Of a stretch of 64,000 nt of DNA, positions 2,316 through 55,092 are shown one piece after another. The position numbers were made by a program, and so were the translations under genes. Source of the stretch: a virus (taxonomy: Duplodnaviria > Caudoviricetes); the IMG/VR virus record IMGVR_UViG_3300005615_000002, positions 4,159 through 68,158 of that record; one strand, written 5' to 3'. The number at the start of each line of letters is the position of its first letter. Within the stretch, counting starts at the first letter, position 1. The notes beneath the pieces were generated by a model, which ran no database searches, was not told where the DNA came from, and was given only the letters and a program-made list of their open reading frames with translations.

Positions 2316-2468
2316 ATGGATTCAGAAACTAGAAGAGCAGTTCAAGCCCTTTGTCGAAAATTGGGACATGAATGGAAAGAAACAACAATTTATAAGGTTA
2401 CAGAGGTTAGATGCAAGATTTGTGATATGAGTAAGGCCATATTTGATATGGGCTCTTATGATAGGTAA
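2316..2468 (+). CDS. Small Cys/His hypothetical protein (50 aa, not in ORF track)
   Basis: ATG 2316, MDSETRRAVQALCRKLGHEW...RCKICD..., TAA 2466-2468; fills the gap before polA. Confidence 0.6.
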   Translation: MDSETRRAVQALCRKLGHEWKETTIYKVTEVRCKICDMSKAIFDMGSYDR

Positions 2469-5064
2469 GTTTGTTAGTGGTGAGGGTCCAGAAGATGCCT
2501 ATGTGATGCTTGTTGGTGAGGCTCCTGGGCGAATGGAAGCATCTATAGGACGCCCTTTTTGTGGTGTAAGTGGGCAGGAACTCAATAGATACCTTCTAAT
2601 GCAGGCTGGTATAAGACGGCAGGATTGTTACATCACAAACGTAGTCAAGTACCGCCCTGATGAGGAAAATTCTGACCCCACAATTGAAGATATAGCTCGT
2701 GACGAGCCATATTTATTGGCTGAAATAGATCAAGTAAAACCCAAGATAATAGTTCCCGTAGGCAGAATTGCGGCTCAATACTTTCTTGGCCCAATTGACA
2801 TGGAATTCGAATATGGACTACCTCATTGGTCTGATAAATTCGATTGTTACATATTTCCAGTGTATCATCCCGCAGCCGGATTACATCAGGCGGATAGATA
2901 CTCTAAACTTATCTACAATGGGTTCAGGCGGTTAGGACTATTTCTTAATGGCCAGCTAGATAGAACACAAGATATACCCGCTAACTATCATAATAGAACT
3001 AGTTTTATCTTAGCTATTGAAATGGCTATTGATACAGAAGGTTATCCAACCAACCCTTGGGGATTGTCATGGTCTACAAATCATGGTGAGGGGTTTGTAT
3101 TAACTCATAATAATTTTAATAAATGGCTTATACCTCCAGAAAAAATAATCTTCCATAATGCTCTTTGGGATCTAAAAGTCCTACGCGGCATGGGTATAGA
3201 AATACCCCATAACAAAATAGAAGACACAATGCTTATCTCCCATTTGCTATGTGTTGAGCCCAAGAAACTTAAAGCTCTTGCCTATCGTGAAGCTGGCATG
3301 GAGATGGAGGAATATAAAGAGGTAATTAAAGAGGCTGATGAAAGAGTATCCCGAAATTACCTGGAACGAGTTTATAGCTCCAGTCTGTGCTCTGAATGCG
3401 GAGGCCGTGGAGAGTCTACAAGACCATGGAAACGAAATCCAAACAAATTTACCAAAGAAAAATGCAAACGATGTGATGGAGATGGGACAACCCTCCCTAA
3501 ACCCGAGTCTCAACTCGTATTCAACTCGGATTTCACTGCCAAACTCTATACCCCTGAAAGTACTGGTAGAAGACTTAGAGCATTTCTATCGAGTAATAAT
3601 AACTATCGAGATAGATGGTACGGACTTTCTAGTAACATCAGGAGCAGTATCGAAGTCAGCTTTGGGCAATTCCCAGAAGTAAGTCTAGATGATGTCGAGC
3701 CTAAAGAAAGGGCCATTAACTACTCTGCACGTGACGCTGATGCTACACTAAGGGTATATCACAAACTACGGCCTAGAATAACAGAAATGGGTCTAGAAAA
3801 GGCATATGAGATAGACCTAGGCTGTATACCTATTATTGATCGTATGCATCAGAATGGCATTTTAATAGATAAGCAATACTTCCGAGATTTAGATGCCAAA
3901 TTTGAAAAAGAGCAGTATTTAGTTCTTCAAAAAATGTATGATGAGGTTGGAGTTTATTTCAGCCCTACCTCACCTCCACAGATGAAACGTGAATTAGCCA
4001 AATTAGGCATTAAAAACCTAGATTCTACAAACGAGCGTACATTACAACTACTGAAAATACAAACAGACAATCCAAAAGTCAAAAGTCTTATTGATCTCGG
4101 TTTGGAGTACAGAGAACTCAGTAAGATGCGGGGAACATACACATATAGGCTAATCAATGAAGCTGATGAAAATTCTAGAATTCACACTACGTTTATTTTG
4201 TCTGCTCAGGAGGGTGAAGATTCTGCTGAGGCGCCATCTACGGGACGTCTCTCTTCCAGGAATCCTAATCTACAAAATATTCCGGTAGGACAAGGCCGTG
4301 GTGAGATGATCCGGGCTGGCTTCATTGCTAAGCTTGGATGCAGTCTATTATCTGTGGACCTTTCCCAGATTGAGCTTAGGGTAGGTGCCCACCTAGCTCA
4401 TGAAAGAAACATGATAGAAGCATTTAAGAGTGGTAAAGACTTGCATACCTTTACTGCTTCTAAAATGTTTAATGTGCCTTACGATCAGGTAGACAAAAAA
4501 AAGCACCGTTACCCAGCCAAATCTATTAATTTTGGTATTTTCTATGGAATGTCTGAATATAGATTACAGTCAGAACTAGCTGTTGAAGGTATCATAATTA
4601 GTTTAGAAGAAGCTAGAGAATTTATAAAAGCATGGTTCTCTATTTATCCTGGAATAAATGAATACATGCATAATGTTCAAGCAGAAGCCCGTCAGAATTA
4701 CTTTGTACGGACTATGTTTGGGCGTATTAGATATTTACCTAATGTACATTCTAAAGATCCCAGAGCACGTGAAGAGGCTTTAAGACAGGCGGGAAATCAC
4801 CCCGTTCAAGGCAGTAGTGGGGATATTCTAAAAATTGCTATGGCAAATATTCATAAAAAAGTCTATCCCGAGTTTAAGGCTATGAATAAATGTTTTGAAC
4901 CACTATTGTCAATTCATGATGAAATTATATTTGAAGTTGATGATGAAATAGCGGAATTAGCCTCTGCAATGGTTGCATATGAGATGGAACATGCTGTAGA
5001 ATTAGATGTACCACTACTCTCCTCTCATGTTATTGCAAAGGATTGGAGTAAATTAAAGGATTAA
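2458..5064 (+). CDS. polA: Family A DNA polymerase with N-terminal family-4-like uracil-DNA glycosylase domain and 3'-5' exonuclease
   Basis: UDG motifs GEAPG..E...G.PF.G.SG, ITNVVKYRP, YHPAA. Exo motifs IDTEG, FHNALWD, YSARDAD. Pol motifs TGRLSSRNPNLQNIP, DLSQIELR, AKSINFGIFYG, VQGS, IHDEI. ATG 2458 preferred over TTG 2443. Confidence 0.93.
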   Translation: MIGKFVSGEGPEDAYVMLVGEAPGRMEASIGRPFCGVSGQELNRYLLMQAGIRRQDCYITNVVKYRPDEENSDPTIEDIARDEPYLLAEIDQVKPKIIVPVGRIAAQYFLGPIDMEFEYGLPHWSDKFDCYIFPVYHPAAGLHQADRYSKLIYNGFRRLGLFLNGQLDRTQDIPANYHNRTSFILAIEMAIDTEGYPTNPWGLSWSTNHGEGFVLTHNNFNKWLIPPEKIIFHNALWDLKVLRGMGIEIPHNKIEDTMLISHLLCVEPKKLKALAYREAGMEMEEYKEVIKEADERVSRNYLERVYSSSLCSECGGRGESTRPWKRNPNKFTKEKCKRCDGDGTTLPKPESQLVFNSDFTAKLYTPESTGRRLRAFLSSNNNYRDRWYGLSSNIRSSIEVSFGQFPEVSLDDVEPKERAINYSARDADATLRVYHKLRPRITEMGLEKAYEIDLGCIPIIDRMHQNGILIDKQYFRDLDAKFEKEQYLVLQKMYDEVGVYFSPTSPPQMKRELAKLGIKNLDSTNERTLQLLKIQTDNPKVKSLIDLGLEYRELSKMRGTYTYRLINEADENSRIHTTFILSAQEGEDSAEAPSTGRLSSRNPNLQNIPVGQGRGEMIRAGFIAKLGCSLLSVDLSQIELRVGAHLAHERNMIEAFKSGKDLHTFTASKMFNVPYDQVDKKKHRYPAKSINFGIFYGMSEYRLQSELAVEGIIISLEEAREFIKAWFSIYPGINEYMHNVQAEARQNYFVRTMFGRIRYLPNVHSKDPRAREEALRQAGNHPVQGSSGDILKIAMANIHKKVYPEFKAMNKCFEPLLSIHDEIIFEVDDEIAELASAMVAYEMEHAVELDVPLLSSHVIAKDWSKLKD

Positions 5065-5483: not shown

Positions 5484-6641
5484 ATGCCTGTACCAATATT
5501 GTTAATATCGGATGCTCCCGATACTCAAACTGGCTTAGGACGTATTACACGCGACCTAGCTTTTGTACTATCTGAAATGCCAGAATTTAGGGTTGGCACT
5601 TTTGGGCGTGGAGGTTTAGGCTCTAAAAGTCTCCCCTGGGCTCAATACTTATTTCCGGAATCTGAGCAGTGGGGAGAGAACCTATTAATTAAAGCTTGTG
5701 AGGATTTTAGTCCAAATGTTCCATTCATTATTTTCACTATCTGGGACGCTTCTCGTTTGTTCTGGTTTGGTCATCCTGATACTCTTCCCGAGGGCTATCC
5801 ACTTAAGTCGTTCTTATTATCAAACCAATTCCAACGCTGGGGATACTTTCCTATTGATGCTTATGGTCCTAATAAGGGATTTTCTAGTATTAGTAGCGCT
5901 GCTTTGGATAGGTTTGACAGAATGTTGGCTTATTCAAAGTTTGGTCGAGATGTCCTCTCAGCTACCCGTGATAATTGGTGCCCAGATTTTATTCCGCATG
6001 GTATCGATCAGGATACTTTTATTAATATGGAGGATAGGAGTACAGGGAGACTTTTTTTAAATGTAGATATGGAAGCTAAATTAGTAGGTTGCGTGATGAC
6101 GAACCAAGCACGCAAAGATTGGGGTTTATGGGCACACATAGCTAAAAATCTTATAAACAAAGATCCTAAATATATGTTCTGGGTACACATCGATGCTTTA
6201 GAACGTTATTGGTCTTTACCAGCTCTTATAGAAGATTTTGGGATAGGCAAACATGTACGTGTTACACAGGCTCTTACTGATAATGAATTAGCTGTTTTAT
6301 ACAATGCTTGTGATATTACAATGCTTCCGAGTCTAGGAGAAGGTTTTGGTTACCCTATCGCAGAGTCTCTAGCTTGTGGGACGCCTGTAGTACATCATGA
6401 TTATGGGGCTGGCCATGAAATGATAGAATTTGGTGAAATCGTTCATGCAGACATATTTAGATTAGATACATTGCATAACGTCTACCGCCCGGTATTTTAC
6501 CCAGAAGTATGGGCTAGTAAAATACAGTATGCATTATCTAAACAGTACAATCGAGAAGAAGTGAGAGCCAGCGTAGAACATTTATTTTGGAATAATTTAG
6601 CACCTGTGTGGAAGAATTGGTTTAAACAAGGATTAACATAA
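5484..6641 (+). CDS. Glycosyltransferase, GT-B fold (GT4-like)
   Basis: ISDAPDTQTGLGR N-terminal motif, IPHGID, LYNACD..MLPSLGEGFGYPIAESLACGTPVV (EX7E). Confidence 0.9.
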   Translation: MPVPILLISDAPDTQTGLGRITRDLAFVLSEMPEFRVGTFGRGGLGSKSLPWAQYLFPESEQWGENLLIKACEDFSPNVPFIIFTIWDASRLFWFGHPDTLPEGYPLKSFLLSNQFQRWGYFPIDAYGPNKGFSSISSAALDRFDRMLAYSKFGRDVLSATRDNWCPDFIPHGIDQDTFINMEDRSTGRLFLNVDMEAKLVGCVMTNQARKDWGLWAHIAKNLINKDPKYMFWVHIDALERYWSLPALIEDFGIGKHVRVTQALTDNELAVLYNACDITMLPSLGEGFGYPIAESLACGTPVVHHDYGAGHEMIEFGEIVHADIFRLDTLHNVYRPVFYPEVWASKIQYALSKQYNREEVRASVEHLFWNNLAPVWKNWFKQGLT

Positions 6642-7070
6642 ATGAATGTTGGCATAGTTGGGCATGAAGCAGCTAAATTCACTACACTTAGCGAGGGTCT
6701 TGCCAGAAATCTTATACGAGAAATACTAATACAAGAAAAGCCTACCAAAGTAATAAGTGGTAAATGTCATTTAGGTGGGATTGATGTTTGGGCAATAGAA
6801 GAAGCTTTTAAAATGGGCATACCATTTAAAGAGTATCCTCCTGTTAAATTGAATTGGTCAGAAGGCTTTAAACCACGGAATATAGATATTGCTGCGAACA
6901 TTGATGTTATCTACTGTATTGTAGTTTCTAAGTATCCAGATGATTATGATGGTATGAGGTTTAAGCATTGTTATCATTGTAATACTTCTGAACATATTAA
7001 ATCTGGTGGTTGTTGGACTGCTAAATATGCTGAAAAACTAGGCAAAAAAGCTAGGTGGCTGGTTCTATGA
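6642..7070 (+). CDS. SLOG-superfamily (DprA/YspA-like) protein
   Basis: VGIVG start, VISGKCHLGGIDVWA, RN..IA, GG.WT pattern. Confidence 0.6.
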   Translation: MNVGIVGHEAAKFTTLSEGLARNLIREILIQEKPTKVISGKCHLGGIDVWAIEEAFKMGIPFKEYPPVKLNWSEGFKPRNIDIAANIDVIYCIVVSKYPDDYDGMRFKHCYHCNTSEHIKSGGCWTAKYAEKLGKKARWLVL

Positions 7071-8416
7071 AGATAGTATTAATTACAAGAGATCGCCCAG
7101 AATTAACTGAACAAACTATAAGTACCATGGTGACCAATGCGGCAAACTGGTCCGCACACGAGCTGTTTGTTGTCTATGATGGTGATGCTCATGATGCAAT
7201 GTTTGATTATTTACAGCAGATATTACCTGTTGAAGTACACCCTACTGGCAGTCAGTTAGGTGTAGGTGGTGCCAAAAATTTCGGTGTTGAATGTTTAGAA
7301 TATGAGCATGATGGGCTAGATGATAATGAAATCATTATGTTTTCTGATAATGATATGTATTATTTACCTAACTGGGACACGAATCTCGTTGGATTGTTTC
7401 ACAGTCCAATTAAACAATTAGGAGGGTGGAGACACCCCTTCCATAAACCTAGTTTAAATGCTTGGTCGGGATATATTACAGGTAAAGGCCGAGCTATCGA
7501 GGTAGATGCTGCGACAGGTAATTGTTTCGTAATTAAGTATTTAGATTGGACTATATATGGGCCTTTCGATGCTAATGCTCTAGGCCCTGGACAGTCAGAG
7601 GACTATGCATTATCACAGCGCATCAAGGCGGGAGGTGGTATTGTGGTAACTCTTGACCTTCCTGTTGCTATTCATTGTGGCCTTGCTAACTGCCTTGGAC
7701 AGCCTGCTACAGGGTGGGCAGAGATGGCTGAAATGGCTGAAAAGCAACTTGAAGCGAATAATATAGATAAAATTTGGTTATCAACTCCAGATGAAGGAAC
7801 TATTTTACTTGAAAATATTGGACAGACTCATACAATTCACACAAGCACTGTTTTTGGTGACTGGAACATTAATTTTAGTGGCATTAATTGTGGTAGTGGG
7901 CAAAGGAGTTTTGATAATACTAGGGGTTGGATAAATATTGATTGTGTTAGTCGTCCTCCTGACCAAGTTCCTGATGTGGTTTTGGACGCTACTAAGTTAG
8001 ATACTGTATTTGAAGAAAATTCCCAGAATATGGTAGTTCTTCATCATGTTTTAGAACATTTTGGGTGTGGAGAAGCAGATGAGGTTCTTAAACAATGCTA
8101 TAAAGTTCTTAGTCCTGGGGGTAGTTTACTCGTTTTTGTTCCTGATTTACGTAAGCTTGCTGGCCGTTGGTTATCTGGAGAACTCGAAGACTTCCAATTT
8201 TTAGTTAATGTTTATGGAGCCTATCAAGGTTTGGAAGGTGATAGACATAAATGGGGATATGATATTAACTTACTTAAAGATTATATAGTCAAAACTTTAT
8301 TTGATGGAGATTTTACACAACAAATAAAGATAAAAGAGTTTGATTGGAGAGAAATATCAGGAGCAGATATAGCTCGTGACTGGTGGATATTAGGCATGGA
8401 AGTGCTTAAATGCTGA
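7067..8416 (+). CDS. GT2-like glycosyltransferase fused to class I SAM methyltransferase
   Basis: N-terminal IVLITRDR..VVYDG..FSDND (DxD). C-terminal INCGSG..WINID..DAT..HVLEH..KVLSPGG. ATGA overlap with the previous gene. Confidence 0.82.
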   Translation: MKIVLITRDRPELTEQTISTMVTNAANWSAHELFVVYDGDAHDAMFDYLQQILPVEVHPTGSQLGVGGAKNFGVECLEYEHDGLDDNEIIMFSDNDMYYLPNWDTNLVGLFHSPIKQLGGWRHPFHKPSLNAWSGYITGKGRAIEVDAATGNCFVIKYLDWTIYGPFDANALGPGQSEDYALSQRIKAGGGIVVTLDLPVAIHCGLANCLGQPATGWAEMAEMAEKQLEANNIDKIWLSTPDEGTILLENIGQTHTIHTSTVFGDWNINFSGINCGSGQRSFDNTRGWINIDCVSRPPDQVPDVVLDATKLDTVFEENSQNMVVLHHVLEHFGCGEADEVLKQCYKVLSPGGSLLVFVPDLRKLAGRWLSGELEDFQFLVNVYGAYQGLEGDRHKWGYDINLLKDYIVKTLFDGDFTQQIKIKEFDWREISGADIARDWWILGMEVLKC

Positions 8417-26433: not shown

Positions 26434-27879
26434 TTATTCTCCCATCTGTCCATTATCTGGATTAGTAGGTGCACTTTGGTTAATATTAGAAGATCCTCCA
26501 GACACTGGAGTACCCTGCAATGCCCCTAATCCGCCAGAGACACGATAATTTCTATCTTCTGAATCTGCAGAGGCTTGACCAAGCAGTGCAAGAACATTTG
26601 GATTCATAGCAGTAAGACGCTCGTTATAAGCCAGGGCCGCAGCAAAGAAATTATCCGCACCCTTAAATGTAGATCTAAACTCTTCTCCTCCCATTTTGAA
26701 GGCAGCAAGATGTTCTGCATAATCTAGTACAGCATCTAACTGTTCTCGACCGATTTGTACAAAAGCAGTATCATCAACTGTAGTCTGAGCCAGTATACCA
26801 GCAGGAATTGGAGCCTTACTGACCACATCAAAAGAAATAGAATAAACGTCGTCTGGACATGGAGATACAGCAGTTAAAGTTCTAATAGAAGCTATTGAAT
26901 CCGGAATTCCAATAGAAGTTTGCCATGTTTGATTAAAAGCATCCATATTTGTTAATGAATCTGTATCTAGTGGTACTCCATTTATTTCAGCATTAACCAC
27001 AACTGGAGCTATCTTGATCAACTCTACACCAAGTTGGTAGCGACGTTCACAATAAGCAGATCGTACATGATCTCTGGCAGGACCGTCTTTAGCTAATAGG
27101 TCTGCCATAGCCCCCCATTTTATAGCCCATACATAATCATCTGGAATACCTAAAAGCACCCCAATAGATGGATTCAATACTGCTCCTGTCTGTACTGCAA
27201 CAAGGTCCAAAGTTCCTGGTTGGTTACTAGGAGGAACTAATATAATTTCTGTGGGCCGTGCTGAGGCAGAAGAATATGTGTATACATCCCCTGGAGTGAA
27301 CAATTCATCAGATTGAAAATTACGTTGAGATAATATATCAGTAGGAATGAGCGGATGTATCACCCCACTAGAGTCTAAGAAAGCTAAACGGCGTATTGCA
27401 ATGACCCGATCCGATAAAAATATTTTACTTACTGTTGGGGTAAGAGCTATACCACTAGTTCTTGTTACTACACAACCAGTATCAGCTAATAATTGATCAC
27501 GACGTTTTTGTATAGAGTTGGTTAGATCTGAGAGAGTAAATTGCTCAGACCCAGTCCAGGAATTACCTGTGGAAGGCTCTAGAAAATGGTATTGAATTAG
27601 TCTAACAGTATCTTGATCTTTAACAACGTGATTTAATAAAGGTACACCATCGCCATTTGTTAAAGTTGTAAGATCATAAAAAGGTTGTGAAGCTACAGTG
27701 TTTAAAGTGCCTGAATCTCTCCAGAAACCAGTAAGTACATTCCAAGTTCTAAATGTTTCGATTAGATATAGTCCCAGCTCTCCATCTGTCCAGTATATAT
27801 TACTAGGATCAGATAATTTTAGAGCCAAGGCGGCTTTTAATTGCCCCCAAGTGATGTGTTGATACGGGACTATAGGCAC
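26434..27879 (-). CDS. Head-tail adaptor-like protein
   Basis: LSDPSNIYWTDGELGLYL N-terminal motif and IPDDYVWAIKWGAMADLL motif. Confidence 0.55.
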   Translation of the reverse strand: MPIVPYQHITWGQLKAALALKLSDPSNIYWTDGELGLYLIETFRTWNVLTGFWRDSGTLNTVASQPFYDLTTLTNGDGVPLLNHVVKDQDTVRLIQYHFLEPSTGNSWTGSEQFTLSDLTNSIQKRRDQLLADTGCVVTRTSGIALTPTVSKIFLSDRVIAIRRLAFLDSSGVIHPLIPTDILSQRNFQSDELFTPGDVYTYSSASARPTEIILVPPSNQPGTLDLVAVQTGAVLNPSIGVLLGIPDDYVWAIKWGAMADLLAKDGPARDHVRSAYCERRYQLGVELIKIAPVVVNAEINGVPLDTDSLTNMDAFNQTWQTSIGIPDSIASIRTLTAVSPCPDDVYSISFDVVSKAPIPAGILAQTTVDDTAFVQIGREQLDAVLDYAEHLAAFKMGGEEFRSTFKGADNFFAAALAYNERLTAMNPNVLALLGQASADSEDRNYRVSGGLGALQGTPVSGGSSNINQSAPTNPDNGQMGE

Positions 27880-36988: not shown

Positions 36989-39028
36989 TTAACTTGTTCT
37001 AATAGTACTACCAGCCCCACCACCATTGTTTCCAGTACTGGGCATCGCTTGATAACTATCTGGTCTTCCAGCACCAGGAGGTTGAGGCCCAATACCCATG
37101 GCACGTTGAGCAGCCAGTTTATCTATTTCTGTGACTGCTCCTGCTGGCGGCTCTCCAAATCCAGGAATATCAAGTGCCTTGGCTAGAGTCCAGATAGAAA
37201 TAATTCCTAAAGTAAAACCTTTTAGATATAACAGTTTACGTGTAGTTGCACTAGAATTTAATAATGATCCTGGAGCAATATTGAAGACTAACTGTCTCTG
37301 TACTTCTTTAAATCTATCAAATACCGGTAGTGGCCCACGTTCTAGGGCCACTTTAGTTAGATTACCTTCTCCGTCAAAATCTTCTGGATGTATAAAATCT
37401 GGTATTAACGTGTTTGGATCAAAGTCAAAATCTTCTGGCTGTGCTCCGGACGGACCTAAAATTCTATAACGTTTTGCAATTGTATAGAATTGCGCAAACA
37501 TTGAAATGAGAATAGTTGCAAACTCTCTCATAAAACATTCTATAGAACGTGATCTGGATTGAAGTATATAAGTCTTAGCTTCAATCATTTTTTCTATAGT
37601 TTCTGTTTCTGGTAACTGGTTTAGTGTTAATAGACTTTTGCCTAAATCAGACAATCCTGCTAGATCATCCATTTCAGCTTTAACCCAGTCAACTTGCTCT
37701 TTAATAATAGGCTCTAAAGGTGGCACCCCTGGCATAATAGGAGTTTCACCCATTGGATTAGCCAGTATCTTAAGACCTGGCCTGCGGGTATTGATAGCCT
37801 CCAAAGCCCGCTTACCCATTGACATGGAATTGGTTATAACGGGTGGATTAGCTACTTGTGCGGCATGATCATCTATAACCCTAAGTAGCCAGTCTAAGGA
37901 CTCTTGAAGAGGTAAAAGATCCCACATAGGACCCAAACCAAACCACTTATTGGGGAAAGGATCTAGTGTTAATTTAACAATTGGGAAATGTACCTGTTCT
38001 CCAGCAGCAAACCAATAAGGGTTTGGTATATCTTCTAAAACAGCGGATCTAGTAAAAATTACCCGCCGCCCTCTTGGATATTTCTTTTCTCCTGGCTTGA
38101 CTTCATAAGACCAATTGTTTGCCGGGATCTGTGGAGGTTTTGAAAATATATTTGCTATACCTTCTGGTTTTACCCAGGTAGGATCATCCTTAAATTCTCC
38201 CATTTGTATTGGAATAGTATTGCGGTTAATTTCAGCATCCATTACATACATTGTATAAATATAGATTGCTGGTTGTGCTCCAATAGAAGCTTTTGGACGA
38301 GAGGAAAATAATCCCTCATCTAGTGGGTTGCCAGCTTTCATATTAATGCTTTGATAAACCTTACCAGCTCTAGTAGACTCTAAGGCAGTACCGTCCAAAG
38401 CATCATGATCTGAACTTAAATATGGGGCAGCGTCAGGCCATAAAAGTCTGGCATGAGAAAGTGTATATTCTTCACGTACTATTACCCCACGGGAATTTTG
38501 AATAGATAAAAACTCACCATCTGGGCGGATGGGTATTAAATCTCGTGGATCAACAGCTTTAGGCATTATTTCTTGTCGTTCCGGGTCCCATTCTAACCAT
38601 AAATATCCACAGCCAGCTACCCAAGCATACCGTAGACATTGCGCCAGCCCTATTTGATCACAAGAAACGCGTGTATACCATGACGTGGCAAGTTTAGAGA
38701 AATTATCAGCAGTTTGGTCTAAGGAAGAGTTATAAGCTTTGATTTCAAAAAATGGCTTGATGTCAGTCATTTGAGCTACACCTTCCAAAAGTATCTTTCT
38801 CATGCGATTAGAAGATGTAGTAGCCAAACCACTAGGTCTATCTAATTCGGCCAGCATTGAAGATGTTTTTTTAGAACAAACTCTATCTATTACTGGTTGG
38901 ATTAAGTCATATCCAGTTTGCCGTTCTAAAAACTTTTGTCCGTCATCAAGACATAGTCCACCATACTGTATGATCTCAGAGGGATTGCCTCGACTAGGAA
39001 GTCGGATTGGGGCAGCACCAAAAGCCAT
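36989..39028 (-). CDS. Portal protein (P22-like)
   Basis: 679 aa after terminase; GCGYLWLEWD, VDPRDL, FPIV..DPFP..WFG.G..DLLPLQ motifs. Confidence 0.85.
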   Translation of the reverse strand: MAFGAAPIRLPSRGNPSEIIQYGGLCLDDGQKFLERQTGYDLIQPVIDRVCSKKTSSMLAELDRPSGLATTSSNRMRKILLEGVAQMTDIKPFFEIKAYNSSLDQTADNFSKLATSWYTRVSCDQIGLAQCLRYAWVAGCGYLWLEWDPERQEIMPKAVDPRDLIPIRPDGEFLSIQNSRGVIVREEYTLSHARLLWPDAAPYLSSDHDALDGTALESTRAGKVYQSINMKAGNPLDEGLFSSRPKASIGAQPAIYIYTMYVMDAEINRNTIPIQMGEFKDDPTWVKPEGIANIFSKPPQIPANNWSYEVKPGEKKYPRGRRVIFTRSAVLEDIPNPYWFAAGEQVHFPIVKLTLDPFPNKWFGLGPMWDLLPLQESLDWLLRVIDDHAAQVANPPVITNSMSMGKRALEAINTRRPGLKILANPMGETPIMPGVPPLEPIIKEQVDWVKAEMDDLAGLSDLGKSLLTLNQLPETETIEKMIEAKTYILQSRSRSIECFMREFATILISMFAQFYTIAKRYRILGPSGAQPEDFDFDPNTLIPDFIHPEDFDGEGNLTKVALERGPLPVFDRFKEVQRQLVFNIAPGSLLNSSATTRKLLYLKGFTLGIISIWTLAKALDIPGFGEPPAGAVTEIDKLAAQRAMGIGPQPPGAGRPDSYQAMPSTGNNGGGAGSTIRTS

Positions 39029-39907: not shown

Positions 39908-40783
39908 TTACAGCCGCCCTATCTCCTCGAAACGATCTTCCCATGCTCCTTTTAAAGCTTCCGAGGACATATCGGACATTTGCCAGTTAACAGATTTACC
40001 CTTTGCAATTCTAGATTCATCTGGTATTTGGACTTGTGTATTAAAGTCGTGCGCCGCAAACCAAGCCAAAGCAGCAGCTCTCACTCTATCATCATGAATA
40101 CCATTGGTTCCCTCAGCATAGATAGTAAATTTTTCTGGATCTAATTTACAATCTGACATCTCTGATAATAGCCAAGGAGAACGAATTATTACCTTGCCAG
40201 AACGCACGTGTTTTCTAGTAAAAATAGACAAATCTCTTACTTGTTTAGGCCCTGCTTCCCAGCCTATACCTTTGGCTGGAGCATAAGTCAGATCGTTTAT
40301 ATACCTGGGTCTATAATAGTTTACATATCCATAGTGGTGAATTAAAGATTGTTCTGCAGGCCAGCCAGGACCAGGATATACTTCCAAAATTACATGAGCT
40401 TGGCCCATTTCATTGTTACCAGAGTATAGTCTGCCTAAACCATTTACAACAGGGGCAAGCTCATAAGCATCAACTGGGGCTGCAAATTCGGCCACCTGAT
40501 AATCTCTACCATCTCTACCAATACGCCATACAGAAACAGCCGCATTGTCGATTGATAGATCTGAGTCTGTAGTTAATTCGGGTGCCCACCCAGGAATACC
40601 AAAGGTTGGATCTACTCCAATCACATATTGTTGTCCAGGTTGTGGAGATTCAAACAACCATACATACCCACGTGCTTGAGATGGGGTAAGATCCTCTATA
40701 GCTTTACCTCGTATAACTCCAAGATCCGGGGTAAGTATATGCCCACCAGTTAAGATCCGATAAGTAGGAAATTTATCAGTCAT
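39908..40783 (-). CDS. terL: Terminase large subunit, nuclease domain as stand-alone gene
   Basis: YVIGVDPTFG, DNAAVSVW, ILEVYPGPG, HDDRV.AAALA RNase H-like motifs. Confidence 0.85.
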   Translation of the reverse strand: MTDKFPTYRILTGGHILTPDLGVIRGKAIEDLTPSQARGYVWLFESPQPGQQYVIGVDPTFGIPGWAPELTTDSDLSIDNAAVSVWRIGRDGRDYQVAEFAAPVDAYELAPVVNGLGRLYSGNNEMGQAHVILEVYPGPGWPAEQSLIHHYGYVNYYRPRYINDLTYAPAKGIGWEAGPKQVRDLSIFTRKHVRSGKVIIRSPWLLSEMSDCKLDPEKFTIYAEGTNGIHDDRVRAAALAWFAAHDFNTQVQIPDESRIAKGKSVNWQMSDMSSEALKGAWEDRFEEIGRL

Positions 40784-42057
40784 TATTGAATACGTCCTAC
40801 TGCTTGTGTATTTTGGAAATTATATGGAATTCCCCCTACAATACCTGCACGTAAAGCATCTATGGTTTCTACATCAAAAGCCCTGTTTCCAGATACTTGA
40901 AAACTCTCTTCTAGTGTAGTGGGATAATTAGTTAAGAAGTATGCAGTTCTGCCTAACTGTCTTTTAGCTTCATATTCAGACTCCCACCAATATGCCTGCT
41001 CTTTTGCGATCGTGACCTTCTTACCAAACATATAAGAGGCAGATGTACGTTCTGCCGTTTCTATCATTTGTTTAGTACGAGGAAGAGGTTCCCAGCCAAG
41101 AGGAGGTTGTTTTCTGTTGTGTCTAGGTTCAGCATAAAAAGGACAAAACAATACATCATACCTTGTACGACCTTCACGGGAGGCTGTTACTGTTTGATGC
41201 CACGTATTACCACGGCCATTAGATGTGGATTCCATTATTACTAGAGTTTCAGGGGACTGTGGCCATGTCGGTTCTAGATCTAAGAAAATAGATTCAGAGC
41301 CTGCCTGCCCTTGAGTAGTATTTATGTCCCAGTTGCCTAATTCTGTGATATGATTTATTGGAATTGTTTTACCCATACCCAAACCACCTTTCTGAGTGGC
41401 TTGGGCATAAAGAATCTTGCTACCCATCTTGCCAAAAGTCAGATGTATATTTTTAGCATCATATTCAATAGAAGGTTTTAACCACCAAGGTAGATGATCA
41501 TAGATTTCATGATCTCTATCATAAAGCTCTTGAACCATTGTTTCATCTATTGAGGCGGCCAATGCACGAGAATCTTCCCAAAAGAAAACTCTATGAGTTG
41601 TCAAAGCACGACTCATAGTAGTATAGCCTTCCTGTCTAGCTTTACAGCATAAGACTAAGAAGCCATCTACTGGTTCTCCACGCCTTTGAGCCTCTACTAT
41701 AGACTTTTCTTTTCTGGCCAAATATTCCATGAACATTTCTTGTGGAACTAATGGCTCTTTAACGCGGGAGATAATTACTGGATGATCTTCTAATTTGATG
41801 AGAGTATGACAATAACGTGTAAAATAATAGCGGAAATCATACTTACAAACGAGACGCTCATTTTTTATAAAAGCTCGTTCTGGAGGCGTAAGTGATCTGA
41901 CTTTGGTAGCAAAACCCCATTTATCCCTAGTTTCTACAGCTTTTTCCAACTGGTCTAACATCTCGTCCAACATGGTATCGTCATAGCGGACTAGTTTAAT
42001 ACCCAGTTTATTTCCCGCTTCCCAAAGCTGCTGATCTGTTAATTCTTGGTTATACAA
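40783..42057 (-). CDS. terL: Terminase large subunit, ATPase domain as stand-alone gene
   Basis: KARQEGYTT (Walker A-like), HITELGNW (Walker B), MESTSNG (motif III), YPTTLEESF. Confidence 0.87.
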   Translation of the reverse strand: MYNQELTDQQLWEAGNKLGIKLVRYDDTMLDEMLDQLEKAVETRDKWGFATKVRSLTPPERAFIKNERLVCKYDFRYYFTRYCHTLIKLEDHPVIISRVKEPLVPQEMFMEYLARKEKSIVEAQRRGEPVDGFLVLCCKARQEGYTTMSRALTTHRVFFWEDSRALAASIDETMVQELYDRDHEIYDHLPWWLKPSIEYDAKNIHLTFGKMGSKILYAQATQKGGLGMGKTIPINHITELGNWDINTTQGQAGSESIFLDLEPTWPQSPETLVIMESTSNGRGNTWHQTVTASREGRTRYDVLFCPFYAEPRHNRKQPPLGWEPLPRTKQMIETAERTSASYMFGKKVTIAKEQAYWWESEYEAKRQLGRTAYFLTNYPTTLEESFQVSGNRAFDVETIDALRAGIVGGIPYNFQNTQAVGRIQ

Positions 42058-42060
42058 AAT

Positions 42061-42435
42061 TTACTCTTCGTAGGCATCCCACAGTAAATTTGTAATATAT
42101 TCTGTAAGATACTCGACCTCTTTTTGGATATTATCTATTTCTTTAAAAGAAAGTTTACGTTTTTCATGAGCTTTTAATTTAAGTGGTTGTACAATTGTAT
42201 GAACTAATTCATGTATTATTGTACGTTCTTGTGTAATTAAAGTATCTTTCCAAAACTCTGGAAATATTTTTATACATATCTCCAGATAAGTTCTATTTAA
42301 ATCTACTTCAGCTCTAACATCGGCATCCTCACACTGAATATTACAAAATGTTATATGTACTGTCCAGTGTTGTAAAAGAAGACGCTTTCGCCACTTTTTT
42401 GCCCACTTGATTATTCTGGTTTTGTTGTGTGGCAT
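42061..42435 (-). CDS. SprT-like / minimal zincin (HExxH) protein
   Basis: TIIHELVHTI motif. Confidence 0.6.
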   Translation of the reverse strand: MPHNKTRIIKWAKKWRKRLLLQHWTVHITFCNIQCEDADVRAEVDLNRTYLEICIKIFPEFWKDTLITQERTIIHELVHTIVQPLKLKAHEKRKLSFKEIDNIQKEVEYLTEYITNLLWDAYEE

Positions 42436-47588: not shown

Positions 47589-47963
47589 ATGACAACTTGC
47601 AGTATATGTAGACGGATATATAGGTATAATAGATTTAAAGGTCATACTAAAACTAAGTGCAATTCGTGCATGGTTAATATTAGACGTTTTAAACTGAAAA
47701 ATACATGTGTACAACTATTAGGTGGAAAATGTTACGAATGCGGTTATACAGAGTGCATAAATGCTTTGGAATTTCATCACATAAACCCAACGACCAAATG
47801 TTTTGAAATAAGTGGTTCACATGCGCGTTCTTGGAATATGATAGAGACAGAATTAAAGAAATGTAAATTACTATGTGCTAACTGTCACAGAAAAGAACGT
47901 TGCAGCAGTAATTATAACTGTAAACATGCACCCGTGGTGTACGGAGCACGGAAAGTCTTATAA
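47589..47963 (+). CDS. HNH (homing) endonuclease
   Basis: CYECG..LEFHHINP..KCKLLCANCHR; N-terminal CxxC motifs. Confidence 0.85.
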   Translation: MTTCSICRRIYRYNRFKGHTKTKCNSCMVNIRRFKLKNTCVQLLGGKCYECGYTECINALEFHHINPTTKCFEISGSHARSWNMIETELKKCKLLCANCHRKERCSSNYNCKHAPVVYGARKVL

Positions 47964-48020
47964 ACTTTATAAACGCCAGATTAGCGTACGGACTGAGTTC
48001 AACTCTCAGCGGGTGTACCA
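47928..48020 (+). tRNA. tRNA with UAU anticodon (nominal Ile) and long variable arm
   Basis: Acceptor gcacccg/cgggtgt, A73, encoded CCA; anticodon arm aaagt-ctTATaa-acttt; 24-nt variable region with acgc/gcgt stem; T arm ctgag-ttcaact-ctcag. Confidence 0.85.
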
Positions 48021-52144: not shown

Positions 52145-53593
52145 TTGATGCACCGATGTAGAAATTGTGAAAGGGAGTTTAATAGCTCGTTTTGGCCTAG
52201 GTGTAATTGTAGTTATTGTGTAGAAAATGGTTTAATACAGTGTGTTTTTTGTTGTTATGAAGCTTTGCCACAAAACCATAGAATCCTAATTAGAGTTGAA
52301 CCAGACATGTTTTTATGTTTGGCATGCAGAATGCCGCATCCTTTTGATAGGTTCTGCAGATGTTGTATTCATCATTCCATATGTTTAGACCATTGTGTAC
52401 ATTCATGCTGTCAAACCAACGAAGCTATACGGTTCATACATCGCTCTTTACGTTTTGCATACCCCTCTACTAAAGCCGATGCTTATGGTAATAATATTGG
52501 TTGGTTAGAGCGGGACTATTCTGAAGGTATACTAAATCGTACAGCATCTTTGAAAGGATTCAATATAGATCCTAGAGGCTTTACAATCAATTCCTCTAGA
52601 CGTTTTGCAGCAGTAGAGTTAGAATTTATAGATTATAAAAATGCTTATAAATTAAATAATTTACTAGTACAATATAACTGTAGTGTAGTTGAAGATGGTA
52701 GTATGGCCCGGCAATATTATGTGGAACATCCTAATAGTAGAAGAAGGAACCTGAAGCCATTTGAAATTAACACATCACCGGCCTGTGGTAATGTATTATT
52801 TCAGCAGATTTTTGATATTGGCATGGCCGTTAAAGAAGCGGAAGCTGTAGTATCTTTGGGTTGCGGAGTTCATGTTCATATAGATTGTCGTGATTTTGGC
52901 TATCAAGAACTACAAAAAGTAATTAGAGTTTATCATGTAATAGAAGAGGCTTTATTTGCAGCCGTGCATTTCTCTAGATATGATAACGAGTTTTGTAGCC
53001 ACTGCGGCACACGTTTCTATGAGCGTTTTATTAATGGGGTTAAACTCGATACTAAGGGGCTAAAAAATAAGCTTATATCTGGTGTTTACGGACGTTCAGC
53101 CTTAGACATAAGGGCTTCGCGAGAAGATAGACAACCTTTATACCACAGAGCTAGAGCAGACCACTATGGTAGGCACGATGGATATACGCGTAATCCCATG
53201 CGTTATTCTGCATTAAATCTACATAGCTATTTTCTACGTGGTACTGTAGAATTTAGACTTCATCATGGTTCAGATGATGCAAAAGAAATATATGAGTGGG
53301 CCAAGATCCTAATAGATTTGTTTGATATTATAGGACATATATCCGAACAAAAATTACAAGAAATACTAAGCGTAAAAAAGTCAGAAACAATAGGGGCATT
53401 GGAATTAATCAAAGCGGATAAATTCCAACGACAAGATTTAAACAAGGTTTTATTAGCTAATGGTGTAGTTGTTATGCGTTCTCTATTGCCAGATGAGACA
53501 TTTAGATATTTACTTAACAAAATTGATATAGCATGTGTTAATTCCAAGGTAGCTACTGAAAGAGTATTACCATGCCACTTAAAAAAGGAATAG
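52145..53593 (+). CDS. Putative amidoligase (GCS2/COOH-NH2 ligase superfamily) with Cys/His-rich N-terminus
   Basis: AVELEF, VEDGS, EINTSP, CGVHVHID, RYSALN, TVEFRLHHGS. Confidence 0.88.
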   Translation: MMHRCRNCEREFNSSFWPRCNCSYCVENGLIQCVFCCYEALPQNHRILIRVEPDMFLCLACRMPHPFDRFCRCCIHHSICLDHCVHSCCQTNEAIRFIHRSLRFAYPSTKADAYGNNIGWLERDYSEGILNRTASLKGFNIDPRGFTINSSRRFAAVELEFIDYKNAYKLNNLLVQYNCSVVEDGSMARQYYVEHPNSRRRNLKPFEINTSPACGNVLFQQIFDIGMAVKEAEAVVSLGCGVHVHIDCRDFGYQELQKVIRVYHVIEEALFAAVHFSRYDNEFCSHCGTRFYERFINGVKLDTKGLKNKLISGVYGRSALDIRASREDRQPLYHRARADHYGRHDGYTRNPMRYSALNLHSYFLRGTVEFRLHHGSDDAKEIYEWAKILIDLFDIIGHISEQKLQEILSVKKSETIGALELIKADKFQRQDLNKVLLANGVVVMRSLLPDETFRYLLNKIDIACVNSKVATERVLPCHLKKE

Positions 53594-53601
53594 CTTACTA
53601 A

Positions 53602-55092
53602 ATGTGCGGAATTTATGGATTTCAAGTTGCACCAGACGCGGAGTTGTCCCTTTATGAATCAACGGTCATAACTCACCATTTGGCACGTGAAATGGAAACT
53701 AGAGGTAGAGACTCCTTTGGAAGTGTAATATTTCCCGAAGGGTTGGTTTATAAAGGGTTGGGAAGGGTTACAGAATGCGGAGTTAAGTTGCTTAAAGCCG
53801 CGTCAGAATCTAGATGTTTTTTGGCGCACACACGTGCAGCTACGGTAGGTGATGTTGTTGTTGAGAACTGTCACCCATTCAATATCGGTAACGTAATCGG
53901 TGTGCATAATGGCAGTGTTTACAACTATCGTACGTTAAATGAGAAGTACAAACGTCCATGTATGGTAGACTCTGAGCATGTTTTCTACCATATTAACGAA
54001 AGGTTGGACCTGTCTGAAATAGAAGGATATGGTACTTTCTTTTGGAAACTAAAGAGTGAGAAAAACTCTAAAATCTATCTTGCAAAAACAGTTAGTGGAA
54101 GTATTACCATAGCTAGACTTTATCGTGGAGATCCTAAAGACGGGGACAACAAAGCTATTGGAGTGATTTGGGCATCAGAATACTTGCCGGTCAGACATGC
54201 CGCTGGAATTTTGGGATTAGAATATGAGAGTATTACTATAGATCCAGCTAAGGTATATTTTATCCAAGACGGTGAAGTTTATAAAACAAACGAGACTTTT
54301 GATGTAAAATCGTCTACTTTTAATAATAGTAATAGTGGCAGCTATGGCAAATATGTTGGTTATAGTAAAAATACAGATGATGAAGATGACGACGATGCTT
54401 ACATCAAGGCTTGGTTAGCTGAAGATAAAAAGAAGAAAGAAGCTGATTTACGTGATGACATCCTTATCTCTCCCTCTAGTGATGTACTTACCAGAGGGTT
54501 AATTTCCTTACTTGGTAATAAAAACTTCTCTAAAAAAGAACGTAAGGCTATTAAGCGTAAGCTTGCCTACTTTAAGAGTAAAAATAAGACTAAAATCACA
54601 GAACCGAGCATACATCAACTCCATAATGGTGTAGGATTTATGCGACATTACGCTCCAAATCTTGTCAGTAAAGAGGTTGAAACAATATTTCATTGCCCGG
54701 AGTGTCAGTGTGACTTGGCACAGCATCTTTGGGGTTGGTGTATAAATGATATTAGAGTAGGATGTAAGGCTAAGGTTGGGAATGGTTGCAATGATAATAG
54801 AGAAATGTTGAGGATTTGCCAAGACTGCGGACATTATTTGATACAGGGAGTGCATAATGTAGATACTAAGTATGAAATTGTACATTGTGCCGTATGTAAT
54901 GATTATTGTGTTCCTGAATCTCAGATTGTTAAATGTTTCCAAGACGGTGATGATGAAATAAGTGAAGGAGCTACTAATTCAACCAATCTAGAGGATGAAA
55001 CAAAAACTAAACTCTACTTAGTACCACCACAGGAGAATGATATAGATACACAGAATTCTCCAGACGACACGGAACTACTTATTAGTGAATGA
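53602..55092 (+). CDS. Class II glutamine amidotransferase with C-terminal Cys-rich extension
   Basis: N-terminal MCGI, RGRDSFG, AHTRAAT, HPF, HNGSV, VDSE. Confidence 0.9.
   Translation: MCGIYGFQVAPDAELSLYESTVITHHLAREMETRGRDSFGSVIFPEGLVYKGLGRVTECGVKLLKAASESRCFLAHTRAATVGDVVVENCHPFNIGNVIGVHNGSVYNYRTLNEKYKRPCMVDSEHVFYHINERLDLSEIEGYGTFFWKLKSEKNSKIYLAKTVSGSITIARLYRGDPKDGDNKAIGVIWASEYLPVRHAAGILGLEYESITIDPAKVYFIQDGEVYKTNETFDVKSSTFNNSNSGSYGKYVGYSKNTDDEDDDDAYIKAWLAEDKKKKEADLRDDILISPSSDVLTRGLISLLGNKNFSKKERKAIKRKLAYFKSKNKTKITEPSIHQLHNGVGFMRHYAPNLVSKEVETIFHCPECQCDLAQHLWGWCINDIRVGCKAKVGNGCNDNREMLRICQDCGHYLIQGVHNVDTKYEIVHCAVCNDYCVPESQIVKCFQDGDDEISEGATNSTNLEDETKTKLYLVPPQENDIDTQNSPDDTELLISE

Follow-up and report, generated by a model that had tools for sequence, protein, structure and literature searches.

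The large terminase (TerL) of an uncultured tailed phage (Caudoviricetes) is very probably made as two polypeptides, an ATPase and a nuclease, from two adjacent co-oriented genes. The phage is known from the metagenome-assembled IMG/VR record IMGVR_UViG_3300005615_000002. The window analysed here is a stretch of 64,000 nucleotides (nt) corresponding to bases 4159-68158 of this 68,158-bp record, and positions without a locus label are positions in the window. The record possesses terminal repeats and carries a completeness rating of 100%. The gene of the ATPase subunit (40783..42057, minus strand) encodes 424 amino acids (aa) and runs from a TTG start to a TAA stop at 40785-40783. The gene of the nuclease subunit (39908..40783, minus strand) encodes 291 aa and begins with an ATG at 40783-40781. 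The stop codon of the first and the start codon of the second share one base in a TAATG sequence (40781..40785, minus strand); this overlap, already described in the initial annotation, was read directly on the minus strand. Most members of a large clade share the split, which is thus genuine and maintained by selection and does not stem from an error in sequencing.

Comparison with single-chain terminases

The genome (the whole 68,158-bp record) contains exactly one ATPase match and one nuclease match, and no other terminase. In an alignment with the single-chain TerL of Tunturiibacter phage Tunturi_1 (723 aa), ATPase residues 60-406 correspond to residues 66-407 and nuclease residues 40-249 to residues 468-670. 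The remaining ATPase tail (residues 407-424, 18 in all) and nuclease head (residues 1-39, 39 in all) together make 57 linker residues, compared with 61 in Tunturi_1. It follows that an ordinary TerL linker has been partitioned between the halves and nothing has been added. The initial annotation had proposed extra linker-like residues on both sides of the junction. This is contradicted by the linker lengths and also by the relatives, among which the fused locus L046 is collinear with the split pair of locus L053 joined end to end. At the level of predicted protein sequence, the alignments show that the two open reading frames (ORFs) together make up a normal TerL that is interrupted within the flexible linker between its domains.

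Conserved motifs of the type P-x-Y-x-F/I are present both in the ATPase tail and in the nuclease head. A duplication at the junction was considered as their source and was rejected, since the fused loci L046 and L017 carry both motifs in series.

Identity and active sites of the two halves

Neither half has a match in Pfam (for the ATPase, none at E ≤ 0.1). The ATPase half lacks a match to any of the curated families Terminase_1, Terminase_3, Terminase_6N and GpA, and PF03237 (Terminase_6N) has no match anywhere in the genome. The sole library match for either half, that of the ATPase to PHROG 5989 (TerL, 5e-9), is weak. With Pfam empty and PHROGs weak, the identity of the halves had to come from family profiles and folds; for the ATPase the reason is that its lineage has diverged beyond the reach of the Pfam models.

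A profile built from the ATPase homologues matched T4 gp17 in the PDB (E 6e-6). This alignment places KaRQlgaT on the gp17 Walker A motif SRQLGKT and hlTE on IDE. The AlphaFold2 (AF2) model of the ATPase has a predicted local distance difference test (pLDDT) score of 88.1, and its best Foldseek match is the ATPase domain of T4 gp17 (2o0j, E 3e-13), covering 357 columns of a 360-residue chain. The next matches are the TerL proteins of HK97, D6E, P74-26 and Sf6. The profile and the modelled fold show the first ORF to be a predicted complete packaging ATPase, equivalent to the N-terminal domain of T4 gp17 with both of its subdomains.

The Walker A motif is of the deviant terminase type (K-A-R-Q-E-G-Y-T, residues 139-146; 41620..41643, minus strand) and aligns with SRQLGKT of T4. 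In the homologue alignment K139, R141 and Q142 are invariant, and G144 and T146 are invariant or nearly so. The end of Walker B and the catalytic glutamate are found at T238-E239 (41341..41346, minus strand), where E239 is invariant and aligns with T4 E256. T238 (41344-41346) replaces the Walker B aspartate (D255 in T4). The threonine is found family-wide, with a conservation of 90% or more, and its counterpart in the fused TerL of Tunturi_1 is a serine. The E-S-T sequence at residues 276-278 (41224..41232, minus strand) is presumably the coupling (C) motif, an assignment made by its place downstream of Walker B, as is usual in the ATPases of terminases. E276 is invariant, and S277 and T278 are invariant or nearly so.

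For the nuclease, the family profile matched the RB49 gp17 nuclease in the PDB (3c6a, E 1e-5). The AF2 model (pLDDT 76.8) was matched by Foldseek to T4 gp17 (2.7e-9), RB49 (4.5e-8) and G20c (5e-7), with further matches to the terminase nucleases of P74-26, SPP1, herpes simplex virus (HSV pUL15) and human cytomegalovirus (HCMV). These comparisons show the second ORF to be a predicted complete RNase H/RuvC-like terminase nuclease. Its catalytic aspartate D58 lies in the VIGVD strand (40610..40612, minus strand; the codon was checked). An acidic residue, E99 (40487..40489, minus strand), would be the second metal ligand by analogy with the RNase H/RuvC-like terminase nuclease fold. The aspartates D231-D232 (40088..40093, minus strand) belong to an H-D-D motif, whose counterpart in the alignment is the HDD motif of the nuclease of RB49 gp17. 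All of these acidic residues are invariant in 35 sequences. As far as the alignments can show it, the residues expected of active enzymes are intact in both halves.

Distribution of the split among related viruses

Eighty related IMG/VR loci were fetched, and 64 of them were classified by the positions of the ATPase stop and the nuclease start. Fifty-seven are split at the same point of the linker and seven are fused, so that the split, for which the initial annotation had pointed to related genomes, is indeed widespread there. It had also named the opposite outcome, in which all close homologues would be fused; the closest relatives (L007, L005 and L006, with 68-80% identity) are all split. 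L007 (80% identity) has an identical TAATG junction, while L005 and L006 have a 61-aa and a 114-aa ORF, respectively, between the halves.

The arrangement of the split loci varies. The halves overlap by 1, 4, 8, 11 or 26 nt in 24 loci, are separated by gaps of 0-18 nt in three, and have 95 to 3,101 nt between them in the remaining 30. In these 30 spaced loci the gap is occupied by ORFs of 61 to 981 aa that lie on the same strand and closely adjoin one another. Relative to the ATPase, the nuclease is found in each of the three possible reading frames. The overlaps include ATGA and TGATG, and a -1 (+2) offset with an overlap of 1 or 4 nt is frequent. The split nuclease ORFs begin with their own start codon at one alignment position. 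The order and orientation ATPase, nuclease, portal is kept in every locus in which both halves were found.

The same picture is seen in protein searches. The ATPase search returned 56 protein clusters, nearly all of 400-425 aa and with the same alignment end, down to 34% identity; a 667-aa fused form (P0048) is among them. A nuclease profile was searched against 1.84 billion representatives (50% identity) and gave 6,852 matches at E ≤ 0.001. Among the best 150 of these matches, 66 are standalone nucleases (with their own methionine and no ATPase domain), at least 57 are fused and 20 look partial.

The ATPase tree, which was rooted on Tunturi_1, has the fused loci in scattered positions, and its well-supported branches require no fewer than four changes between the two states. 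The seven-row clade of the window is split throughout (7/7). The tree is a quick one with a long outgroup branch, and it is compatible either with one old split followed by re-fusions or with several splits. The split or fused state thus appears to be evolutionarily labile, with both forms apparently viable. The nonsynonymous divergence (dN) ranges from 0.15 to 0.27 and the synonymous divergence (dS) is saturated, because of which dN/dS is given for two pairs only (0.044-0.061 in these two measurable comparisons). These ratios indicate strong purifying selection on both genes.

The gap between the two genes appears in these viruses as a recurrent slot for accessory genes (methyltransferases, HNH endonucleases and unknowns). 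Methyltransf_24 proteins, one of them with a GT2 domain, are found in it at L011:3515-5386, L014:2316-3620 and L016:4574-6459. HNH_3 endonucleases are found at L019:4741-5232 and L024:4757-5251, and the 981-aa ORF, which has no Pfam match, at L020:4681-7626.

Insertions within the halves were also observed in this clade. In L067:3501-5333 (and also in L068) an in-frame insert of ~230 aa lies inside the Walker A motif of the ATPase (KARQLGA/C...VSHN/T, with slashes at the insert boundaries) and contains a LAGLIDADG-like LLDGEGS block. From its sequence it looks like a P-loop intein. Two-piece ATPase matches also occur in L062, L071 and L073. The ATPase ORF at L039:3501-5789 is ~760 aa long and carries a second intein-like insert immediately ahead of the conserved motif CATPEESFQ (...VHN/C). 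The standalone nucleases P0064, P0077, P0080 and P0124 (645-676 aa) are matched in two pieces; an insert of ~350 aa inside the nuclease is implied, possibly an intein.

Alternative explanations

One alternative is that the split marks a parting of functions: the ATPase would package DNA on its own, as phi29 gp16 does, and the nuclease would have another task, such as degrading host DNA, recombination or resolution. There are packaging ATPases that lack an active nuclease, phi29 being the example, and in this clade the nuclease may lie up to 3 kb away, behind unrelated genes. The likeness to phi29 gp16 consists in a packaging ATPase chain without an active nuclease. The gp16 chain, however, retains a vestigial nuclease-fold domain and its phage needs no cutting, whereas the window keeps a fully equipped nuclease as a second gene. 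This nuclease preserves the terminase-type fold and active site, and the genome encodes no other terminase nuclease. The constant order and orientation of ATPase, nuclease and portal and the interchange of fused and split forms within the clade also speak against separate functions. In addition, the terminal repeats of the record would imply that concatemers have to be cut. A parting of functions is for these reasons very unlikely.

A one-chain TerL would result if ribosomes made a programmed -1 frameshift, or if slippage occurred during transcription, shortly before the ATPase gene ends; the second gene would then be the continuation of the chain in the -1 frame. The initial annotation raised this caveat, and its observations about the bases of the junction were confirmed. 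The nuclease ORF is in the -1 frame relative to the ATPase ORF, and this frame stays open over the 12 codons that precede the ATG, as far as a TAA stop at 40822-40820, which would suit a frameshift, as would the frequent -1 (+2) offsets with 1- or 4-nt overlaps in the relatives. The overlap contains no strict X XXY YYZ slippery heptamer, as had been stated, and its sole relaxed match, T AAT TTC, would re-pair poorly and is missing in L007, the closest relative. There are no homopolymers of five or more bases within 50 nt of the junction. The relatives show offsets of 0, 1 and 2, overlaps of up to 26 nt, and gaps of up to 3.1 kb that hold other genes, and their nuclease ORFs have start codons of their own at the same alignment position. 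Overlaps such as ATGA and TAATG are the ordinary signature of coupled separate genes. Given the mixed frames, the spacer genes in 30 loci and the lack of a conserved slippery site, frameshifting is excluded as a general mechanism, and for the window itself it is highly improbable.

It is scarcely credible that the halves are rejoined after transcription or translation, either by a group I intron or by protein trans-splicing through a split intein. Such elements are known in terL genes. Group I introns rejoin terL in Shewanella phage KASIA and others (PMC8541194), an intein does so in Microcystis phage Mic1 (PMC7156551), and a split intein rejoins the metagenomic gp17-like 'fractured' terminase of Dassa et al. 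2009 (PMC2677866). Some relatives within the clade have apparent inteins inside the ATPase, as in the Walker A motif of L067, and some have HNH genes between the halves. In the interrupted terL genes (KASIA, Twort-like phages, Bastillevirinae, Mic1 and that of Dassa et al.) the pieces likewise lie apart in the genome, and homing endonuclease genes may be placed between them, comparable to the HNH genes of L019 and L024. These systems, however, restore one chain by RNA or protein splicing, while in the window there is neither intron nor intein sequence at the cut. Zero nucleotides separate the two genes, which leaves no room for an intron, and a comparison with Rfam revealed neither introns nor members of other RNA families, both for the junction of the window and for 16 spaced loci. 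The collinearity of tail and head with the fused relatives and with Tunturi_1 (57 versus 61 linker residues) leaves no intein-sized extra sequence, and the cut shows no boundary signature of C/S/T plus HN.

An indel from assembly or sequencing, or a terL that has lately become a pseudogene in a defective virus, can hardly be the explanation: an indel would lead to just such a frame difference of one base at a domain boundary, and the record is metagenome-assembled, but 57 of the 64 classified loci, which were assembled independently, and ~50 protein clusters from several sources are broken at the same place, all catalytic residues are kept, both halves are under strong purifying selection, and the complete genome has no spare terL. 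As judged from the sequences, an assembly indel and a programmed frameshift, the two reservations expressed in the initial annotation, are effectively excluded.

Expression and assembly of the two chains

The genes lie in the order small ORF, ATPase, nuclease, two small ORFs, portal, and are most likely co-transcribed as a late packaging operon; a scan for promoters and terminators around the operon gave results at chance level. The start position of the ATPase gene is common to ~50 homologues, which begin with MY..I. Translation of the nuclease would most likely be coupled to that of the ATPase through the TAATG sequence, with ribosomes that end on the TAA restarting at the ATG. The gene order and the one-base overlap are the grounds for proposing one late transcript with termination-reinitiation coupling. 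An AGGA (40795..40798, minus strand) 11 nt before the nuclease ATG, noticed in the initial annotation and located here at 40798-40795, is a possible Shine-Dalgarno (SD) sequence; it is weak and may assist the restart. It is not kept in the relatives, many of which lack any SD-like motif, and coupling is therefore the more likely entry to the nuclease gene. Coupling would yield roughly equal amounts of both chains.

The nuclease chain would associate, through non-covalent contacts, with the ATPase ring, the portal or the DNA complex and, once recruited in trans, would cut concatemers at the start and at the end of packaging. The ATPase tail (residues ~395-424) and the nuclease head (residues ~1-30) have low confidence in the AF2 models, yet contain short conserved motifs, which are candidate contact sites between the chains. 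The initial annotation proposed a natural two-subunit terminase. The part of this concerning the split gene pair is supported by the relatives; that both chains come together in a single functional motor, and that the enzyme at work is the split one, we infer.

Several points weigh against this reading. The tail and head at the cut have low confidence in the models, so that any interface between the chains is hypothetical. The AGGA is not conserved, and its 11-nt spacing is at the long end of the useful range, so that independent initiation of the nuclease is no more than possible. No cultured phage with the same split was found in the phage collection, where the best isolates are at most 28-30% identical and fused. 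Finally, the nuclease domain of the P74-26 TerL does not bind or cleave DNA when it is isolated, and it is the ATPase domain that grips the DNA (PMC5389665). By this precedent a free nuclease in the present phage needs a separate binding mode, and protein-protein contact with the ATPase ring or the portal would be expected.

A further claim, that the split is an adaptive alternative motor design and that the repeated switches between split and fused forms reflect selection and not drift, is doubtful. If it were true, the nuclease could be a detachable subunit recruited only at initiation and at headful termination, and its stoichiometry may differ from that of the five ATPases. Bacterial Avs-type sensors, which recognise a two-domain surface of the single-chain TerL, may also lose this target through the split, and the gap between the genes would be a preferred landing slot for methyltransferases and homing endonucleases.

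Relation to known systems

The T4-type gp17 (PDB 3cpe, 3ezk and 2o0h/2o0j; RB49 3c6a) gives the best profile and fold matches for both halves. Like the window, it has two catalytic modules in the same order, a SRQxGxT-type Walker A, a glutamate after Walker B, a coupling motif and a nuclease with the D...E...HDD pattern. The window differs from it in having two polypeptides, ~15-20% identity, threonine in place of the Walker B aspartate, and an extra N-terminal region of ~130 residues before Walker A. The closest annotated relatives are the TerL proteins of Tunturiibacter phage Tunturi_1, of 933W/Stx-phage and of the Bcep22/DC1 type, with ~24-28% identity over 60-82% of the ATPase. The Tunturi_1 group has the same total and linker length and a serine or threonine at the Walker B aspartate position, but all its members are single chains.

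Another essential phage enzyme is reportedly encoded in a comparable way. The ribonucleotide reductase gene nrdA of Aeromonas phage Aeh1 is said to be split by the homing endonuclease gene mobE, with the halves working as separate chains. The likeness lies in an essential enzyme made from two ORFs and in mobile endonuclease genes at the split site. Aeh1 nrdA is, however, a different enzyme in a single phage, whereas the TerL split is old, clade-wide and mostly without an endonuclease.

In the published 'split' terL genes that were found, introns or inteins always rejoin the pieces, and the other uses of 'split' that were met are unrelated. The literature searched held no natural two-chain TerL, nor is one mentioned in a 2026 review, an absence that is not proof. 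The terminase of the window is a known enzyme in a variant form and not a new kind of system.

Neighbouring and other genes of the window

Just upstream of the ATPase gene lies the small ORF of 124 aa (42061..42435, minus strand), for which neither Pfam nor PHROGs gave a match. Where it lies in the customary gene order makes it a candidate small terminase, by position only. The portal protein gene (36989..39028, minus strand) lies downstream in the same operon and matches PHROG 156 (portal, 1e-6) and Pfam SU10_portal at 1.7e-5, the latter under the curated cut-off. An adaptor at 26434-27879 (minus strand) has a weak SU10-type match (SU10_adaptor, 2.2e-9). The SU10-type matches of portal and adaptor hint at a podovirus body plan similar to that of kuraviruses.

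The ORF at 2443-5064 on the plus strand encodes a family A DNA polymerase whose N-terminal domain belongs to the uracil-DNA-glycosylase superfamily (Pfam DNA_pol_A 1.7e-101, UDG 1.5e-29). Also on the plus strand are a glycosyltransferase/methyltransferase cassette at 5484-8416 (a GT1 and a GT2-methyltransferase fusion) and a pair consisting of an amidoligase and a class II glutamine amidotransferase at 52145-55092. By analogy with phiEco32-type peptide-ligase clusters, the cassette and the pair suggest DNA or virion modification chemistry. ARAGORN predicts a tRNA with the anticodon UAU (Ile) at 47928-48020 (plus strand), which at 93 nt is unusually long for a tRNA-Ile. The G+C content is ~40%. 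A scan of bacterial and archaeal genomes for the host gave only three distant matches in soil metagenome-assembled genomes (Pseudonocardiaceae, Acidobacteria and Abditibacterium), at 27-30% identity.

Significance of the split

Packaging models of tailed phages and herpesviruses treat the covalent link between ATPase and nuclease as mechanistic. Its supposed roles are communication between the domains, restraint of the nuclease during translocation, and delivery of DNA from the ATPase to the nuclease. In a deep and diverse clade this link is cut, and fused and split forms alternate among near relatives, from which the covalent link appears to be dispensable in nature. Annotation pipelines, TerL phylogenies and virus-detection tools that expect a protein of 500-700 aa will mis-call or miss such split genes. 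Matched natural pairs, for example the fused L046 and the split L053, could be used to probe what the linker contributes, how the nuclease is recruited and silenced, and by which of its domains the enzyme touches the portal. The clade as a whole offers a natural test of why the large terminase is normally one chain.

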